From Moniliella sp. 'wahieum' (lineage: Eukaryota), in contig RSEE01000039.1 in NCBI GenBank assembly GCA_003971905.1, forward strand, positions 248,001-312,000: DNA of 64,000 nt, written 5' to 3'. Of the stretch, positions 18,198 to 64,000 are shown in pieces (within the stretch, counting starts at the first letter, position 1; each line of letters starts with the position of its first letter). The position numbers and the translations under genes were made by a program. The notes beneath the pieces are model-generated. The model did no database searches and was not told where the DNA came from. It saw only the letters and a program-made list of their open reading frames with translations.

Positions 18198-19795
18198 GGT
18201 AACCGGTAACCCGTAATGGGACAAGAAAGGGCTAAGCGGGGTAAGTGACGGTTTGCGGTGGGTAGGGACGTGGTGGATCGAGCGGATGGATATGGGGGAT
18301 GACCAGATGACCAGTAGCTAGTAGCTAGTGGCTAGTGACTAGTCGTAAGCACCAGACAGTTAAGCGCTACGCTAGGGAGCGAGGTGCACGGGCTCAGGTG
18401 ACCGGTGACCGATCAGTCCGATGAGTCAGATTGCTGGTACTAAGTACGAACTAGTACGGGGTTCAGAATGGGGTTGACTAGTGAGGCCTGAGGGCGGGGT
18501 ACGGGGGTGGTGGATGTTTGGACGCAAGTGGGATGGACTCAAACTGAGAGAAGAGGGAGGCGATATTGAAGGGCCTGATGAGGTAGAGGGAATACGAGGC
18601 CTGAGGTTCAGGACAGGAGAATCGACTCGAGACCTGCCGAGAGGAGAGGGGAGCAAGCCGATGAAGAAGCACAGACGTCGGTGAGGTGGTGGCAGGGAGC
18701 CTTGCCAGTGCCGATCTCCAGGACGGGCATCCCTTTTTGGTCCAAGGGCGTCGTTTGTCGTCTCAGACGTCCGATGGACCCCTCCAACTTGAGGCGCTCA
18801 GGCGCTCAAGTGTACTGCTGCCTGGCCACCGCAAGACCGAGGTCACCTGGGTCACCCGGTCACCATCACGCCAGTCACCGGTCACGACTGCATGGATACG
18901 CCGATTACGTCGATTATGCAGGGTCCTGTGTACCTATGTACAGCTGGTACTTCTGCCGTTAAGCAGGTTAAACGTGAAGCGTTAACCGTGTTGTGCAGGA
19001 GCCGCTGCAGAAGAGAAGCGAGCACCTCGGCAAGAGGCTGGCCATGTGCTGGTGCGCGGGGCTTGCGGTGCCAAGCGGTGCCTGCCCGCTGGTGCTGGGC
19101 ATGTGCGGATGTCTCAACGGGGCAGCTGTGCACGCCGCACTCAGACATGCATCCAGCCCCGTGCTAGTGCGGCGCCGCGGGGCCGGCTCCTGCGTACTCC
19201 AGGACGCTGGACGGCGCTCAGCTGAGCGCTGACGCTGACGGCTGATGCGCTGATAATGATTGGCGCTACGCCCAAGCGCACTACCTGCGCCGAGTTACGG
19301 TAGGCTACGCGTTACGCAGTTGCGGTTAACGTTACGCGTTACGCCTGGTTACCGGTTACGCGTTACGCCTGGTTACCGGTTATGCGTTACGCGTTACGCG
19401 TTACGCGTTACGGTTCTATAGTTAACGTTTAACTACTGTTGCACGTTAGACGTTAGATTCCGCCACCTCTCTCTCACATGTCACGCATGTCACATGCTGC
19501 AGTTTCCTTTTTTCCATACCGAAATCACCTTCCGGCCGCAGGCGGTTTCGGCTTGCCTGGCTCCCAGGGCCTAACCTAAGGCTTAAGGCCAGGCCGTACG
19601 TGCCCTTCTCCGCTCTGCCCCTATGCTCTACCCTCTGCTTTGTCTGGAGGGAGTCTCCCCAACAGTCTCCTGTTCTCTCCCCGATGGACGTAGTCCAGCT
19701 GTGCCTCCCAAACCTACGTACCCTATAGTGATCCGTACAGTAGCCTCTATTAGTAGCTAAAATAGTAGCTAGTAGCGTGTATTAGCGCTTAGCCA
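18198..19795. repeat. Extended palindromic heptamer field upstream of the forkhead gene (part 1)
   Basis: (GGTAACC)2 18198, (AGTAGCT)n grading into AGTGACT 18313-18343, (GGTGACC)2 18397, GGTCACC x3 18841-18864, GCTCAGCTGAGC 19216, (CGTTACG)n/GGTTACC 19307-19412, TGTCACA near 19489, CCTAAGG 19575. Confidence 0.9.
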
Positions 19796-20014
19796 CAAGC
19801 TGCAAGCCACATGGGCGACAAACGTATGCGCCCTCCCACCCCCACCACAGGGATCCAATTGCTATAGCAGTCTATTTTGCCAAAATAAGATGATTCTCGC
19901 TCGTGACGCGTGATGATAAAAAAGAAAGCGTAACGTTTTCTGAGCAGGTCCCTCCAGTACACCCCCTGCCCTTCCCCCACTGGCCAACCAAAACTTGCGA
20001 AATGGAATGATTAA

Positions 20015-20855
20015 TGATGCAGGACGCAGGATGCAGGATGCAGGAATGGTCTTATGCCTGGTAGTAGCGGCTAAGCGCTAAGGCTTAGCGCTGAGGCTCA
20101 GCGCATGGCTCCTGCACATGCATCATGCACTCATGCTGCGCTATGTGCTGCTATAGAGCGCATATAGTCGGCCTTGTAAGCGTTACATGTTAGGTCTGAG
20201 ATCGATGAGGTCATGAGATCATGTCACATGTCACATGCTCATCTTATCGATCATCGCACACGCCCACATGCCAAGTCCTGAGACCTCAGGCCTTGAGGCC
20301 TGAGGCCTGAGGCTTGAAGCTTGAAGCTTGAAGAGCTTGAAGCTTGAAGCGTGAAGCTTGAGGAGCTTGAGGCCAGCCCCAGGCCTGGGCCTGAGGCCTG
20401 AATATTGAATATTGAATGTTGAACGTACCTGAACTTCCTGGACCTTCCACACCCTTGCCCGGCCCAAGTCCTGCATCGAGCACGCTCAGGCTGTCAGGCC
20501 AGTCTGCTCAGTCGCTCACAAGCTCTCAGATCTCGAGGCGCGATCGTATTCAACAGATGCACGGATCTCAGATTCAGATCGAAGAGTGATCTCGAATACA
20601 TATACTGAGTGTACTGAGTTACTATTACTGAAGCTTGAAGCTTGAAGCGTGAAGAGCTTCCGCTCCAGCAATGGAGTTGAGTGGTTGAGCGCGTTGGTTG
20701 AGCGCTGAGGGTGGTATTAGACTGAGTGCTCAAAGTGGCAAGAAGGCGAGCGATTTTTTTGGTGTAAAAAATCTTATTATTAACAACAATCTTAACGATC
20801 TTAACGATCTTAACGATCTTAAGGTCAAAACGTTTAACGTTTAACGTTTAACGCG
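20015..20855. repeat. Extended palindromic heptamer field (part 2)
   Basis: (GATGCAG)n near 20020, GCTAAGC/GCTTAGC/GCTCAGC 20070-20102, (TGTCACA)2 20222, CCTGAGG>CTTGAAG>ATTGAAT>GTTGAAC array 20292-20426, (CTTGAAG)2 20634, (ATCTTAACG)4 20789-20824, (GTTTAAC)3 20832-20852. Confidence 0.92.
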
Positions 20856-23940: not shown

Positions 23941-24218
23941 CTTGGCCGACGTGGGGGTAGAGGCGAGGTGGAAGCAGGACGACCGATAAACGAGCCTGCG
24001 CGGCCAGCATAAACCCATGGGGCATCCGGGGGCCCCAATTGCCACCTGGCGATAGCTGGTTTGGGACAGGGTGAAATTTGAGATGTGAGACGTTACCTAA
24101 TCTCCCAGCCCCGCGGCGCCCCCAACGCCCCCCAGTCCGCGCTTCACAGTCCACGGGCCAGGCGCGACGTGGAAGCGGCACCCACACACCATTGCCGCCT
24201 CCTCTCCCCTGTCCTGGC

Positions 24219-24967
24219 ATGGTGCGTGGTACGCTCATCGCGCGTGTCAGCGACGGCCTCCCGCTTGCGCAGAGCAGTGATGACCAGAACTCGGCCCAGC
24301 TCGCCGAGTACGCGGCCCAGGCCAAGCTTGTCGTTCGCCGCCTTGGTCCCGGGAGCGAGCCTCGGTGCAGCATCGAAAGCGGTGCCATGACCCTTCATTA
24401 CCTTGTCCGTCCTCCTGCTCCCGACCCAGCGGCGGTAGTATATGTGGCCATCTGCGAAAAATCGTATCCGCGCAAGCTGGCCTTCGCCTACCTCGAGGAA
24501 CTGGCTGTCGAGTTTGGCCAGTCGCATGGACCCCAAGTGGCCCAGCGCACCCTTCGACCGTATGCGTTTGTCGCGTTTGACACATTTATCCAACGCACCA
24601 CCCGACTCTATGCCGATGCCCGCACCGCCCAATCGGCCAAGTCGAGCAACCTGGACAAACTCAACGAGGACCTGGCCGATGTAACACGCATCATGACCAA
24701 AAACATGGAGGACCTTCTCTGGCGCGGGACAGTTTGGATCAAATGTCCACCATGTCGAGCTCACTCCGGGATGAGTCGCTGAGGTATCGGAGATCGGCAC
24801 GCAAAATCAACATTGATGCTATGATCCGCAAATGGGCCCCGTACGTAACCCTTTGGGCTTAGGCTGGTGGGAGCGTGACCTGCGTCATACTAACACTTCT
24901 TCTTTCGGTCAGGGTGGGTGCTATTGGGGTTCTGTTTGTGTTTATTGTGTACATCAAGTTCTTCTAA
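24219..24967 (+). CDS. SEC22: R-SNARE Sec22 (longin + SNARE + TM)
   Basis: TLIARVSDGLPLAQS, CEKSYPRKLAFAYLEEL, RPYAFVAFDTFIQ, VTRIMTKNMEDLLWRG. 1-bp deletion near 24728, intron 24841-24912, C-terminal TM VGAIGVLFVFIVYIKFF*. Confidence 0.96.
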
Positions 24968-25200: not shown

Positions 25201-26123
25201 TCACTTCTTAGCGTCCTTGGGTGGCTCCTCCTCCTTGGGCGGCGGAACCAGCTGGTATTCATTGGGCAGGTACGACACGCCCTCGCCCACCTGCTCCCAT
25301 GGAGACGTTCCCTCAAAGTTGCGGAACGCTTGGGTCAGCTGCAATGGCTCCTGCACCACGCGCTTCTTTTCTTCGTCGTACCGCAGCTCGGTGTACCCAG
25401 TCAGAGGGAAATCCTTGCGTAGCGGGTGGCCCTCAAATCCTGCAGATCGAACCGAAGTTAGATTAAAAAAACTCTCTCTCAGAACCAGGCAGGAAAGGGC
25501 GTACCATAGTCGGTCATGATGCGACGCAAGTCCGGGTGGCCAACGAAGAAGATGCCAAACAGATCATACACCTCACGCTCCATCCAGTCCGCCGAACGGA
25601 AAAGACCAGTGGCACTAGGAATGGGCGTCACCTCGTCGCCGTAGGTCTTGACGCGGATCCGCGAGTTAAAGTTGATGGAGAGAAGGTGGTAACGATCTCA
25701 AAGCGTTGCGAACGCGAAGGGAAGTCGACCGCGGTGAGGTCCTGAAGCTGGGTGTACTGGCACTGGGTGTGGTCGCGCAGAAACTCGAGGACGGGGGTGA
25801 CACCGGCTGGGGCAATGTACAGCGTCAACTCGTCCTTGACCACCGTGAATTGCTGGATGAACTTGGGCAGCACGCTGGTAAGGTAGGCGCCGTAGTCATG
25901 GAGCGGCAGGCTGATTGCCTGGTACTTCTCTGCGGGGTTGATGCCGGCGGGCTCGATAAAGGGCGAGTCGGGGTTGACGCGGTCACGCCGGCGGGGTACG
26001 GGGGCTGGGCCAGCACACGCACCGAGGAAGAGAGCGCGCGGGCGGAGAGGCGAGGGGCAACCTGGGGCGCAGCACGCACCGCGGCGCGGACAGCGCGTAC
26101 ACCGAGGGCAGAAGGGCCACCAT
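25201..26123 (-). CDS. NDUFS3: NADH:ubiquinone oxidoreductase 30 kDa subunit (NDUFS3/NUO-30.4)
   Basis: [18 protein letters not shown]...[35 protein letters not shown], intron 25440-25504, [29 protein letters not shown]. Frameshifts are present. Confidence 0.96.
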
Positions 26124-26478
26124 GGGGCGTCGGCAGGGCGGGGGCGGTGGGGGTGGTGGCTGGCCGTCGCCCCGCCTGCGCCGGGCAGATTCGACCAGGC
26201 GGGGCTGGGCTTCCGTCTCGCGGGCGGGCAGGTGCCGGGGGCCATTACTAACCCGAGCGCACGGGGCGGAATGGATTCTCTAGTGTGCATTTCCGCCTCC
26301 CCGCCCCCGTCGCCTGCGCCACCATTCACCACCATATTCACCACCAACACTCCCCACCACTCACTACCCCCACCACACATCAAGGGCAAATAGATTCATG
26401 AACAAACAACACGATCCGTCCCCCCTCCACCCGTGCAGCAGTCCGAGGGTGGGAAGGATGACTGGAGGGATCATCTAC

Positions 26479-31029: not shown

Positions 31030-34000
31030 CCAGCCTAAAACAGCAGGCCCAAGGCGAATCAGGACGGGGAAGGGGCCTGGTCAGGAGCCGGGCTGAGGGA
31101 GGTGCGGGAGGAAGGAGACAAACGTTGGGAACGCAGGCGCATGCTCAAAGGGGGTTCGCCGTAGGCGTTTCAGCATCGGGCAGGACACGGGGTCGATGGC
31201 GAGGGTATGGGTGGCGAGGGTGGTAGTAGTCCATCCGGGCCCTTCTTGGATGGAGAGGGAGGAATCGAGGCCCGTCGAGGGAGATGCGGCCGATTGCGGC
31301 GGTTTTGTCTTTTTGCGCCGGCCACGGTGGGAGACAGAATGGGAGGATGCGACAGACTGGGGTCCAGTGGAAGGCGAACCAGACGCCGGAGGTGGACCGG
31401 GGTTAGAGTGGGGCTTGTGGTGCCGGGAGAAAACAGGCGGTGGGCGCCCAGATATGCATAGGAGGAAGATAAGTCCAGGTCGTCGGGGTCCTTATCGGGC
31501 ACGAGGCAAGGTGGGGAGGATAGGCCGGTCGAAAGCAAGGCGGGACTGATCGCCTGGGTTGGTGGTGCCACGTCCTCAGCTTCCTCCTCCACCGGCGTGC
31601 GGGGCAGCACATAAACTTCATGAATAATCGAGGGATCGACAAGGCGAGCCAAGAGCTGCTGAATGTCAGCAGAAAGTGGGACCAAGGAAAGATCCACACG
31701 GCGGTCCAGCTGCTCTTTGGAGGCAGGACCCGCATCCGTCACTCCCTCGGCCTGGAGAGCAGGTGCGTAGAGTGTGCACTGGGGCAAGAGGAATGCCTCT
31801 GGTCCTGCGTGAGCCGTGTTGATCTGAACCACATGATACCGGCACCTGTACCAGACAGCCAGAGCAGTCAGCCAACCAAAGTTTCCAAACAATCAAGTGA
31901 AGAGAATCTCACGTACTGCGAGCGCGTCACGGGACCCTTGCTTTCGTACGACGGATTGGAGGCGATGCGATGGGAATGGCCACCCCTTTGGGTGCCAAGA
32001 AGTCTTTACCGGGGAGACGGGGTTACAGATTTTGTGGCAGCCTTCTTCTGGGAGGTGGTGGGGGTGGCGTGTTGTGGTTGTGCGCTGGTAAGGGTTCAGG
32101 AGGCTGAGTAGTGCTGGGATTTTGCTCGTTCTGAGGCTCAGTAGTGCTGGGATTTTGCTCGTTCTTCTTGTTACTTTCCAGGATCCTCGGTTAGGATTTG
32201 CACCCGAATTACCCAGTTCATCCGGTCCCGTCGTAACTGGCGACTGCGCCCGGAGAAAATGATCGAGATCCACGCCGGGTGACCCCGGAGCAAGGTGGGT
32301 GGGCAGAACGAGCTCTTGCTCCCCAACCTGTTGTTCAACAGGTCCAATCCGAGGACTGCATTCCTCCGGATCCCCTTCCAAGAGACGAGCTATAAACTCC
32401 TCCTCTTCAAGTCCATCCAGGTCAGTTGTAACCGGTGCCTGCTCCAGGGGAGAATGATCGAGAGCGAGGGAAGGAGATCCGATGGGCTCTTCCACGACTG
32501 CAAGAGGCTCAGAAGAACTCGTCTGGACATTTCTGTTCCCCTGCTCCGCTTCCAAAACGCGGTATGGTTTCCACCCTTCCCAGCTCTTTTGAGCTAGTTG
32601 AATCCGTCAACGGGCCCTGTTTCGGAGTATGGTAGAGGGGCGGGGTGGGCTTTTGCGCTACCGCCTCGGCCTCGGGATGGTGTACCTGGGAGTTGCTGCT
32701 CTCCGGGGCTTCATCCCAATCATTCGACGCCTTGGACTCTTCCCGTCTCAGTAGATCTGAGGGAGATGTAACCGACCCCTCATTCGTCAATTGCTCTCCT
32801 CCCAGTCCATCCGAGCTTGTTTCATAAGGTGGCTGTTTCATAGGAGGGGGGTCCAGAGCGAGATGAGAGGATTGTTCCTCCACGGGATGATCCAGGGTGG
32901 GGAGGGGGGCGGGTGGGGCCCTGCACCACCGTCTGGTGCTCAGGAATGTGTTCCTGGACGTTGCTGCTCCCTGGGGTGTCATCCAAGTGACTCGACGCCA
33001 CGGTTTCTTCCCTTCCCAGTAAATCTGAGCCAAAGGCAACCAGCATCTGATTAGTTAATTGCTCCCCTCCCAGCTCATCCGAGTCGGTTTCATCTGGCGG
33101 CTGTTCCAGAGGAGGATGTTCCGAAGCAAAGTGTGAGGACTGTTCCAGCAGGTGGTCCAGCAGGTGGTCCAGGGTGAGGCAGGGGGACAGGGTGGGGTTT
33201 TGCTCGCCCTCGGGGGTGTGAGCCTGGACGTTAATATTCGCCGGGTTATCAGCGCGATCACTCGAAGCCAAGAATTCTTCCCGTCTCAGTAGATCTGAGC
33301 CAGATACAACCGGCACCGGATTTGTTAATTGCACCCCTCCCAGCTCATCCGGCGGCTGTTCCAGAGGAGGATGTTCCGGAGCGAGGTGGGATGACTGTTC
33401 CAGCAGGTGGTCCAAGGTGAGGCGGGGGGACAGGGCGGGGTTTTGCTCGGATTTGGGGCGTGGCGCTGCACGTTGATACTCGCCCGGTTGCCATGCCCAT
33501 CATTCGACACCAAGGATTCTTTCCGTCCCAGTAGATCTGAACCAGATACATCCGGCACCGGATCCGTTAATTGCTCCCCTCCCGGCTCATCCGAGCTGGA
33601 TTCAACTGGCAGCAGTTCTAGAGGAGGATGTTCCGGAATGAGGCGGGCAGACTGTTCCATCACGGGGCGGTCCAGGGTGAGGTCCTGCACACCCCCTTGA
33701 TGCTCAGTAGGATATACATGAAGGTTTCTGTCCCCCTGCTCCTCTTCCCGAAAACACATGGTTGCTTCTTCTCCACCGAAACGAATCCAACCCAGCGGAA
33801 ACCGGTCCATCCTCCAGAGCAGGATGGACCAAGACAGGCGGAGAGGACCAAATCAGGGCTTGATCCATCGACTGAGGCTCGGAAGGGTCTGGTTGGGCGT
33901 TGCTGTTTCCCAGGCTCTCCTGTAACAGACACGGCCTAGACGCGTCCCCTTCCATCTGACGAGAAGCAGACATATCCTGCACCTGTTCCGGGGAATAGGG

Positions 34001-61159: not shown

Positions 61160-61340
61160 TGTAACAGTCGGGGCTAAAGGAGGGAAACCAAGGTCCTGTC
61201 AGAGGTGGGGGAAAAGGCAAGATCTTTCGTGGGAGGAAACAGAAGGCATTGGACAGAGAACAGAATCAACAGGGAAGGGAAGAGCTAGGCACAGGATGCA
61301 GAGTTGGAAATTGGAGCGAGCTTAGTCACTGTCGGTGACA
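61160..61340 (-). repeat. Putative short 3' LTR
   Basis: It starts TGTCAC just after the PPT. Candidate ends are ...TGACA (61197, 144 bp) or ...GTTACA (61160, 181 bp). The 5' LTR is outside the window. Confidence 0.55.
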
Positions 61341-64000
61341 TTTCCCCCTTTCAGACCTCACCTCCCCGGCGTTGGAGAAGGCGGGGGCAAGGGTCACACG
61401 ACGGGCGCGGGAAACAGGCTTGTCGGGTATACATCGCATGGAAACGAACCACCACGACGGCGTCATGGGACATGTCCGCAGCTGGCACCCACACCCGCTC
61501 GTGGACAGGTGTAGCCTCGGAAATGGACAAGGTAATACTCCCGATGTCCACCGTGATCCTTACGGCGGGAGTCAAGAACCTCCTGGACCTCGTGATGAAC
61601 CGTCCCATTGTCTGCATATTCGGGAAAGGGTGGAGGGGGCTCGACCAAGCGGTTAGAGACCTCGTCGCCCGGACTGTAGACGCACAACCGGGAGAAGTGG
61701 AATACATCGTGGATATGAAGCCAACCAGGCAGGCGAACTTGATACGCAGCACGGACGACAGCACGGACGATTGGAAAGGGTCCCAGGTAGCGGTAATTCA
61801 ACCCGTCAGACGGACGTTGAGTGGATAAGTAGCCATCGCGACGGACCAAAACTGGTTGACCAACTTCAAAGGAGTCGGCCTCGGCGCGATGCTGATCATA
61901 CAGCGTAGTGCCGATACCGCTCCTGGGCTGCGGCTAGCGTCTTCCGAGCTACGGCCTGGGCCGAGCGGAGACCCTCGAGGTACGAAGCGGCGTCCGGCAC
62001 GACCGACGACTCAGCCGCTAACTCACCGCGGGGCGAGTAGCCATACGTAAGGAAAAAAGGGGACGCACCTGTGCTGGAGTGGGGAGAGAGTTGTAAGCAA
62101 AATCGGCCTTGGGGAGAAGATCAATCCAGTTTGACTGCTGCTCATCCAGGTAGCAACGAAGGTACTGCTCGAGAACCTGGTTCACCCTCTTCGTCTGTCC
62201 ATCCGATTGGGGTGATACGCCGTGCTGAGGCTAAGTGGATGCCCAAAAGTCACTGCACAGGACCCGCCAAAAGTGGCTCGCAAAAGTAGGACCGCGGTCG
62301 CTAACCAAGTGGCGCGGCAACCCATGGTAGCGGAAAACGTGGTGAACAAACTGGCGGGGCAAGCCGCGGCACCGTGTCCGTTGTATGGGCAGGAATGAAA
62401 TGCGCCATCTTGGTGAATCTGTCCACCACGACCAAGATGGCATCGAACCCCTTCGAGGGTAGCAGCTGGGTGATGTGGTCCATCGTCAAATGAGTCCATG
62501 GGCCTTGGGATGGGGCCATCAGGGGTTGGAGCAAGCCAGCAGGAGGACACCGCGGCACTTTGGTCCGCTTACAACGGTCGCAAGAGTGCACTATATGCCC
62601 ACGTCGGCCGACAGGCGAGGCCACCAATACTGCTACCGTACAAGCAACCGAGTCTGGTCCCTCCCTTCGTGTCCTTCCAGCGCGGAGTCGTGGGCCTGGA
62701 AAAAGACAGCCGCGCGGAGAGGGGCATCGGGAGGGGCTTAGATCTGCTCACCATGCCACAGGAGGCCATCGCGAACGGTAAGAGCATGAGGGGGAGTCGC
62801 GGGAGGTCGCAACGGCCCAACGGGAGTCGCGCGGCACCATATGTCGCGGATGCGCTGCTGGATCTCGTTGGCCGACAAGCATGCCATCACGGCGCGTCGG
62901 GCTGACTGGACATGATATCGGGCACAGCAGCTGAACGCTCAGAAACAGGCTCCAACAAGGTCTGAGGGGCAGCCTCGGCAGGCCAGAGGCGATGGAAAGA
63001 TCGGGGCGACGGGACAAGCATTCAGCAGCAGCATTCTTCGACCCGGATCGATACACCATGAGTAACCGGTAGGGCGACAAGGTCTAACGCCACAGGCCCT
63101 GCCGGCGGTTCAGGAGGCGCGGGGCGGAAGGTAGCGAACGCCTGTGGTCCGTAAGCACCTGGACCGTATCGACGCTCTCAGCATAGTAGCACCACACTTC
63201 GACGGCCGCCACAATGGCAAGCACCTCCTTCTCAGACGTGGTATAGTTGAGTTCGGCTGCGACAACCTTGCAAGAATGAAAGGCGACACGCCGCCAACGA
63301 CCATGCTCGTCCTTCTGGGCCAGCACGGCACCTAAGGCGGCGTCCGATGCGTCATCTCAATGCGGAGTGGCCGACTGTTGGGGTCAAAATGGCAAATGAC
63401 ATGGGGAGAAGCGAAGACCCTCTTGAGGTCGTCGAAGGAGCTTTGGCACGTAGGCGTCCAATCAAACCGCTGTGTCTTGCGGGTGAGGTCGGTAAGGGGT
63501 GCCGTAATGCGGGCATAGGAGCGAATGAAGTGGCGGTAGTAATTGGTAGACCCAAGGAACACAACTTGGCGGCTGGCCTTTGGCGTCGGCCATGCTTTGA
63601 TCGCTTCCACCTTAGCTGGATCCATTCCGATCTCCGTAGGCGTAACGACGTAGCCCAAATACTCTGTCCGGGAATGTGTGGAACTGGCACCTGTCAGGAT
63701 TAAGGTAGAGCCTGGAGGGCTGCAGACGCCCAACCCTCCGCAACATGCTCCTCGTGTGCCTTTCGTCTGACGAGAATACCAAGATATCGTCCATATATAC
63801 GCCAGCACCGAGACGTCGAGGAGGTCCTGAAGGAGCATTCGTTACGGATTGATGGACAGTGGCGGGTGCTTACAGAGATCGAACGGCATGATGAGGCACT
63901 CAAATGACCATACCGGGTACGAAAGGGCGTCTTGTACTCATCGCCCTTTTTGACCCTCAAAAGGTTGTACGCCCCACGGAGGTCAAGTTTGGTAAAAACG
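61160..64000 (-). mobile_element. Ty3/Gypsy chromovirus LTR retrotransposon (3' part: RT, RNase H, integrase, chromodomain, PPT, 3' LTR)
   Basis: [29 protein letters not shown] and YMDDILVFS; RNase H AELNYTTSEKEVLAIV; integrase CDRCKRTK, VVVDRFTKMAHF, VSDRGPTF and STAYHP; GPF motif; chromodomain EVQEVLDSR...YLVHFRGY. The minus-strand polypurine tract AAAGGGGGAAA is followed by TGTCAC at 61340. Heavily frameshifted. Confidence 0.95.

Follow-up and report, generated by a model that had tools for sequence, protein, structure and literature searches.

Palindromic 7-bp arrays in a smut-related fungus: probable stacks of transposon excision footprints

Introduction

Excision footprints are known from single loci and from assays. 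Those of Ac/Ds (hAT) in plants, S. cerevisiae and C. albicans are described as a retained target duplication accompanied by short deletions and P-nucleotide palindromes (PMC5873905). The arrays analysed here are similar in that the target duplication is kept and that P nucleotides can be attributed to hairpins of the flanks, with P tracts that are likewise short in a fungus. They differ from Ac/Ds in their centre of symmetry: there it is odd and falls on the complement of the element-adjacent base, here it falls between two bases where a 7-bp duplication ends. RAG hairpins are flush. RAG coding joints, Transib and Muta1 all involve flank hairpins, which are opened by Artemis or Pso2 (PMC5499845, PMC3299998). 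Our locus would share with them the hairpin on the flanking DNA, its opening by the host two bases from the apex, and the end-joined footprints, but it departs from them by a 7-bp TNA-centred duplication and by a single dominant product that recreates targets in register.

Subterminal repeats are a feature of EnSpm/CACTA elements. The fungal members of this group (Tnp2, PF02992) have CAC..GTG ends and 3-bp duplications; duplications of 7 bp are made in fungi by hAT7 and by Kyakuja, the latter being devoid of terminal inverted repeats (TIRs) (PMC12730594). The element family that we describe below resembles EnSpm/CACTA by its weak Tnp2-like remnant, its TIRs and the subterminal repeats behind both of them, but it starts with CTCACTG and duplicates 7 bp, where EnSpm/CACTA elements have CAC..GTG and 2-3 bp; it resembles hAT7 and Kyakuja by its 7-bp duplication and differs from Kyakuja by having TIRs. 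In the smut Ustilago maydis, short and dispersed '10-bp repeats' have reportedly been proposed to be element footprints, a proposal said to come from Laurie and colleagues in 2012. The available parts of PMC4159001, PMC5106213 and PMC4824034 contain neither '10-bp' nor 'footprint'. The present pattern is not described in the literature that was searched; its novelty may also depend on subscription papers and on repeat libraries.

The genome and the second copy of the locus

The window, by which we mean the whole stretch of 64,000 nucleotides that was analysed, belongs to contig C39 of an assembly of 69.5 Mb in 223 contigs. The host is a smut-related fungus of the Ustilaginomycotina: the SEC22 of the window has 74% identity to that of Tilletiaria anomala, about 71% to those of Ustilaginales, and 86-96% to three further records. 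The region is present twice in the assembly, once as the window and once, in collinear order and with an identity that is mostly 91-98%, on contig C15 (C15:160001-310000). With its two collinear and diverged copies, the genome is that of a dikaryon or of a hybrid, and the second copy amounts to an allele pair for most loci of the genome. Another diverged collinear pair is formed by stretches of C17 (L063) and C62 (L070).

In the alignment of the copies, clean 1-bp indels number 517 and isolated substitutions 1,473, and both SEC22 (24078-24782, + strand) and the gene for NDUFS3, the 30-kDa subunit of complex I (25628-26389, minus strand), appear frameshifted without an intron, these frameshifts being probably long-read indel errors. 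Differences of 1 bp between the copies are therefore unreliable. The window also carries a 230-bp dispersed repeat (2683-2884) that is nested in the transposable element of contig C23 too, a 242-bp tandem repeat (32631-33682) and a probable fragment of an LTR-retroelement (61268-63300).

Layout of the locus

An earlier note, made from the sequence of this DNA, had listed TGA triplets every 7 bp from 20294 to 20420 and the 4-mers that separate them, all of which are present as given. It had also singled out two hybrid 4-mers, GGCT (20311-20314) and ATGT (20416-20419), and each half of these indeed pairs, as reverse complement, with the dinucleotide on the far side of the adjoining TGA. The single array in register that it described is rather a pair of adjacent arrays, A (20292-20372) and B (20390-20434), and the register is broken between them: the TGA steps after 20329 are 9, 7, 7, 7, 9 and 24 bp, which sum to 63, so that 20392 is back in phase by arithmetic (a chance of 1 in 7), and in the second copy the two arrays are out of phase with each other. 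The four units that were thought to morph into one another exist as 4-mers, but ACGT is not a full unit, since the step that follows it is 10 bp, and GGCC passes to ATAT without any hybrid. The note had omitted two 9-bp units as well as AGCG, a unit that is not palindromic. All the features of the arrays given below are read on the + strand.

Array A contains 11 TGA, which is the longest run of identical TNA among the 734 kb examined. The 7-mer CTTGAGG is found at both of its outer ends (20292-20298 and 20366-20372) and is read as the seed, or target site, of the array. Two GGCC units (20297-20310) are missing from the second copy, and the first of them cannot be produced by direct duplication of the shorter allele, two mirrored bases being needed. 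The hybrid GGCT, present in both copies, consists of the right two bases of the seed followed by its left two bases, and this is the junction of a bare 7-bp duplication. GGCC mirrors the left half of the seed and AGCT mirrors the right half. Within the AGCT run, a 9-bp step (20327-20342: a 7-mer, two P-type bases and the same 7-mer) is missing in the second copy, and the AGCG unit (20348-20351) breaks the symmetry and is uncompensated in both copies. The array ends in a textbook footprint (20357-20372), in which two P-type bases (AG, 20364-20365) separate two seed 7-mers, and at the matching site the second copy holds the seed once. Immediately to the left, at 20277-20291, a presumed older scar common to the second copy comprises two near-inverted 7-mers, forming a 14-bp palindrome with one mismatched pair; it may be a long P-nucleotide tract.

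The spacer between the arrays (20373-20389) includes a perfect 12-bp palindrome (20378-20389), and its right end differs between the copies. In array B, which retains its seed CCTGAAC at 20428-20434, GGCC switches straight to ATAT at the TGA of 20399, a switch that needs no intermediate if one asymmetric site has grown both ways. The hybrid ATGT is common to both copies, and the last step, of 10 bp, is made of two P-type bases and one unexplained A. Both arrays belong to a non-coding stretch (18200-20853) with 35 sites that follow the TNA-palindrome-TNA rule described below, located upstream of a probable forkhead gene on the minus strand (a weak match, E 0.044, in one exon).

A genome-wide rule

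The locus is an extreme case of a rule that applies throughout the genome, according to which a TNA is followed by a 4-bp palindrome and then by the same TNA. Where two identical TNA follow each other at a distance of 7 bp, 265 of the 467 fillers between them are palindromic (7.7 in shuffled sequence), and in the frames ANT, CNG and GNC palindromic fillers number 11 of 191, 26 of 462 and 22 of 559. Exact 7-bp tandem repeats tell the same story: 27 of the 38 in the window are a 6-bp palindrome plus 1 base (0.2 of 4.4 in shuffles), as are 108 of 170 in 264 kb (2.3 shuffled), and a 14-mer of this kind has 3,150 occurrences across the assembly, where its reversed control has 0. We count 454 scar clusters in 734 kb, in which every one of the 16 possible palindromic cores occurs; this is a density of 619 clusters per Mb, which would correspond to about 43,000 over the whole assembly. 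Besides the window with its flanks and two transposase loci, the sample comprises 60 spaced stretches from the 25 largest contigs less one, and it includes about 17 kb of homologous pairs. By a crude count, open reading frames of at least 150 aa contain only 10 of 74 sites, though they hold 33% of the TNA. In other fungi, no flank-matched site was found in 423 kb around SEC22 (30 loci of at least 6 kb out of 53 fetched, partly redundant); the corresponding 20.5-kb span of the present genome has 29. Scar clusters less than 600 bp apart in the 734-kb sample have the same orientation in 159 of 277 pairs, a weak bias.

Anatomy of the junctions

For the analysis of the junctions, sites were modelled as x y T N A z w, symmetric sites were excluded, and 664 kb were covered, 10 kb of which are the second copy of window DNA. 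Each filler was tested as a prefix of (z w + site mirror) joined to a suffix of (site mirror + x y). Among the uniquely assigned junctions, the left four bases are kept in 116 and the right four in 107 (2 and 3 shuffled). The full 7-bp duplication with 2 mirrored bases is found 9 times on each side, that is in 18 junctions, one of them at 20357-20372 (0 and 0 shuffled), and 8-bp forms are found 14 and 5 times (0.5 and 1 shuffled). Forms of 6 bp amount to 21 and 18 (3 and 1.5 shuffled; 7 and 8 in the ANT control), bare duplications, a class that slippage produces too, to 34, and both overhangs are retained once. Of the 9 registers that a doubled dinucleotide can occupy within a symmetric unit, the two P registers account for 14 of the 20 unambiguous cases (a further 3 are ambiguous), which means that scars have been hit again.

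Our reading of the junctions is that 7 bp are duplicated, that two P nucleotides are added and that one side is trimmed. They contain both a target duplication, retained in whole or in part, and an inserted reverse complement of the flank. Pso2 and Artemis cut hairpins preferentially two bases 3' of the apex (PMC3299998). The junction spectrum fits flush hairpins at both ends of the duplication, opened two bases off the tip, with one overhang usually lost. Two allele differences, at 19214 in the window and near position 8310 of L071, a stretch of the second copy, involve a longer mirror tract; its centre falls within a GC pair to the left of the TGA and is shifted by one base from the usual position.

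Differences between the two copies

Over 131,474 aligned columns, the copies differ by 16 clean indels of 7 bp, and by 8 of 5, 14 of 6, 6 of 8 and 8 of 9 bp. Four of the 16 are exact pairs of an empty and a filled allele without any prior repeat, 5 are pure duplications within existing arrays, and the remaining 7 were left unassigned by the script. When one mismatch is allowed in blocks with a net difference of 7 bp, 12 of 31 fit a TNA-centred site (ANT 0, CNG 0, GNC 1, any other frame 5).

The locus is useful in this respect, since the two alleles reveal the order of events around the hybrids. In array A of the second copy, the seed leads directly to GGCT, without any GGCC unit, and is found again at the end; the window has in excess two GGCC, two AGCT and two 9-bp units, which make 46 of its 81 bp. 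An outgroup allele was sought by a metagenome scan, in which the best segments of 53 loci are 36-78% identical and none is close, and the change in array A could have run either way, through three deletions leading to the short allele or six insertions leading to the long one. In array B, the window has two ATAT and one ACGT around the common ATGT, and the second copy has one ATAT (with a base missing) and two ACGT. ATGT is best read as an ACGT that would have undergone one C-to-T change at a CpG and would later have been mirrored into ATAT units.

As the same hybrids are found in both copies while the numbers of palindromic units differ, whole units have been gained or lost. The changes that the earlier note called compensatory are thus inserted mirror copies of the halves of each hybrid: neither hybrid involves a compensatory substitution, although ATGT still needs one ordinary point mutation. 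The note had also envisaged selection on pairing, and suggested checking whether substitutions come as complementary pairs. Between the two copies they mostly do not, since out of 65 gap-free aligned sites 52 are identical and 13 have differing cores, 11 of which break the symmetry (2 of these are alignment shifts in array B). The other 2 are still palindromic, one through an alignment shift at an inserted unit and one through a swap of the central bases. Cores diverge at 5.8% of positions and flanks at 3.6%. Selection on pairing is therefore not supported.

A transposable element with the same target

A pattern search demanding a TNA gave 40 matches, including five inverted pairs. All five paired copies have different flanks, an exact 7-bp duplication, TIRs of about 60-95 bp and subterminal repeats; four are about 4.9-5.0 kb long, with ends that are 96-98% identical, and one, a non-autonomous member on C20 (L123 161-538), has 378 bp. 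As these copies were found by a pattern that required TNA, a search with the TIR only serves as the unbiased set: a TNA-centred 7-mer adjoins 11 of its 12 exact ends. At the twelfth (C8:478684-478707), a TNA-centred site is followed by two mirrored bases and then by the TIR, an arrangement that may have arisen when a cut at one end only was closed into a hairpin, reopened and joined back to the element. The 57 TIR matches with one mismatch, against 55 in the control, were excluded from the counts. At C11:228231-233099, two facing TIR ends are 4.9 kb apart, with flanking 7-mers that do not match and are both TNA-centred. The genome thus contains an element family, with termini that begin with CTCACTG, that matches the scars in duplication length (7 bp) and in TNA centre. 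Its targets look narrower than the scar seeds (TGA/TCA only, against 71% TGA/TCA and 29% TTA/TAA).

The C23 copy, the sole element read whole, is without a long open reading frame. Two of 150 Tnp2-like proteins match it weakly (E 6e-8, 28% over 189 aa), and a Pfam search of its 7 short open reading frames gave no match. The element behaves as a hairpin-forming cut-and-paste type and fails two defining EnSpm tests, for which reason we do not place it in that group. A profile search of the genome with PF02992 found two genes, around which no convincing inverted ends were seen. One of them, on the minus strand of C34 (C34:513259-516872; L064 3259-6872), has long open reading frames of 446, 251 and 543 aa; this Tnp2-like gene is a single match in the genome, lies 8 kb from a TIR element, has no inverted ends that could be found around it, and is a candidate for a domesticated or source transposase.

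Other searches were less productive. Profile searches with PF13960 and PF18759 gave no match and are weak negatives, as is that for the hAT dimerisation domain PF05699, whose control did not match either; a search of longer proteins for a transposase found none. A generic scan for TIRs and duplications over about 690 kb returned 9 candidates, none credible. A loose pattern gave 412 matches against 238 in the control, the first 30 being without a common family, although one of them (L119) is a TIR end. Six small repeat families have no TIRs, and no TIR end occurs within the 64-kb window.

Proposed origin and alternatives

We consider it probable that each array is a stack of transposon excision footprints, lengthened in part by slippage. 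At insertion, as the paired copies show for this genome, the TIR element duplicates 7 bases x y T N A z w. On excision, both flanks would close into flush hairpins, and the opening of each hairpin some two bases from its tip would create an overhang of 4 self-complementary bases, z w w' z' at the left flank and y' x' x y at the right one. As the junctions show, one overhang is usually kept and the other dropped, which adds 7 bp and a palindromic 4-mer copied from one flank; rarer products add 8 or 9 bp. The scar then carries new TNA sites 7 bp apart, which, as the allele differences show, are hit again or slip. What looked like morphing would be an asymmetric site that grows one palindrome leftwards and another rightwards, and a hybrid would be an older junction, or a singly mutated unit, both halves of which were mirrored afterwards.

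Adjacent palindromic units are the same in 102 cases, differ at one pair in 15 and at both pairs in 13, which makes 28 direct switches, and there are 12 half-and-half junctions, each with one broken pair only. A simulation of footprints, whose junction weights derive from the same junction spectrum, gives, when scaled to 102, 9.5-14.3 one-pair switches, 11.6-12.8 both-pair switches and 1.2-9.5 hybrids, fewer hybrids than the 12 observed. Since all 12 have one broken pair, bare duplications of random seeds fail for most of them and point mutation is needed. Further observations count against the footprint stack: scars outnumber the 12 exact element ends by three orders of magnitude, the window is devoid of TIR ends, no pair of an element-filled and a scarred allele was found among the 14 large differences inspected in the aligned copies, the element targets look restricted to TGA/TCA and part of the scar seeds are TTA/TAA, and the element read whole has a weak Tnp2-like match and no long open reading frame.

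The scars appear to be a main source of non-coding sequence here, at about 600 clusters per Mb, and are still polymorphic between the copies. They offer a concrete way for tandem repeats to originate in the repair of transposon breaks, without selection for base pairing, and they warn that changes in DNA palindromes may look compensatory and yet have a purely mutational origin. They would also document, in nature, where fungal hairpins are opened, namely two bases from the tip, and form a fossil record of transposon traffic in an element-poor genome. We would suggest only tentatively that an undescribed transposase lineage (with an EnSpm-like remnant, CTCACTG ends and a 7-bp TNA-centred target), or a domesticated copy of it, acts as a self-propagating writer of promoter DNA. 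If so, the repair product would recreate, and perhaps improve, the transposase's own target, leaving tens of thousands of scars and a measurable share of the indels between haplotypes, and this would be a route to microsatellites that starts without slippage.

Two alternatives seem to us unlikely to a similar degree. The first is a free or domesticated transposase-like nuclease that would cut with a 7-base stagger at TNA, the ends being hairpinned and rejoined without any insertion. This would account for scars that exceed element ends by orders of magnitude and for one spot being hit repeatedly, array A alone having three differences that are not due to slippage, and the C34 gene, with its long open reading frames and no inverted ends found, would be in keeping with it. 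However, a real family exists whose duplication has this length and this centre, so that ordinary movement of elements that are later lost is sufficient, and we know of no precedent for stagger duplication and hairpinning without strand transfer. The second is a template switch during replication or repair, in which a nascent strand would fold back two bases past the TNA, copy two or three bases and re-anneal 7 bp upstream, no transposon being involved. The main +7 product can be drawn in this way with the T as microhomology, and vanished elements become unnecessary. This reading nevertheless predicts neither the strict centring on TNA with free flanks, nor the 8- and 9-bp series that stop, to the left as to the right, exactly at a 7-bp duplication, nor an element whose 7-bp target is identical; it predicts the scarcity in coding DNA no better, and the lack of flank-matched sites in the 423 kb of other fungi speaks against it.

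It is much less likely that the array is maintained by selection for a cruciform, a hairpin or a protein-binding function in the forkhead promoter, and as an explanation of its origin this is refuted. The strand does fold far better than shuffles (-37.7 kcal/mol, z -7.95), and it lies in a long upstream region. Good folding must however be expected of any palindrome-plus-one repeat, and there is no dominant fold (MFE frequency 0.0023, centroid -16.6). More than half of array A is missing from the second copy, the cores are not conserved, their differences mostly breaking the symmetry, and all the possible palindromic cores occur. The array is without a shown function.

Least credible of all is an ordinary slippage microsatellite with point mutation as the sole cause. 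As a secondary process, slippage in all likelihood brings gains and losses of units in arrays that are already present, and it clearly contributes to their recent change: the pure duplications among the clean 7-bp indels speak for it, at a per-site rate (5 of 128 sites) about 50 times as high as that of new scars (4 of 5,192 TNA). As the sole cause it is refuted. Simulations with 0.5-4% mutation per step, scaled to 102, yield at most 1.05 one-pair switches, at most 0.1 both-pair switches and 0.1-2.6 hybrids, even from a palindromic seed, against the observed 13 both-pair switches and 12 hybrids, and the 9-bp steps have no flanking microhomology. The earlier note had asked whether slippage with point mutation readily reproduces the pattern, which it fails to do. 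Of the two causes that the note proposed in place of independent point mutation, local inverted copying is supported.

Three further candidates were rejected: a 3-bp duplication with two-sided hairpins predicts that both pairs are broken in 9 of 15 hybrids, against 0 of 12 observed; an odd-centred hAT hairpin disagrees with the even centres (265 same-N sites against 20 complementary-N sites); and an assembly artefact is at odds with a pattern that is common to both copies and depleted in open reading frames, unreliable though the 1-bp differences are.

Neighbouring arrays

Other arrays are found close to the locus. A second AGCT array, 298 bp away in the window (20629-20662), has an AGCG unit and a doubled AG like array A, in both copies. 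Genome-wide, G is the commonest variant at positions of the AGCG type (48 G, 26 A and 26 C among the 100 sites listed out of 127). Where the window has 9-bp and 7-bp arrays, at 20795-20849, the second copy (L071 7849-8234) has a dispersed repeat of about 385 bp. Finally, a TTA-based array at 19306-19412 follows the same rule, alternates CGCG and CCGG units, and shows a 17-bp difference between the copies.
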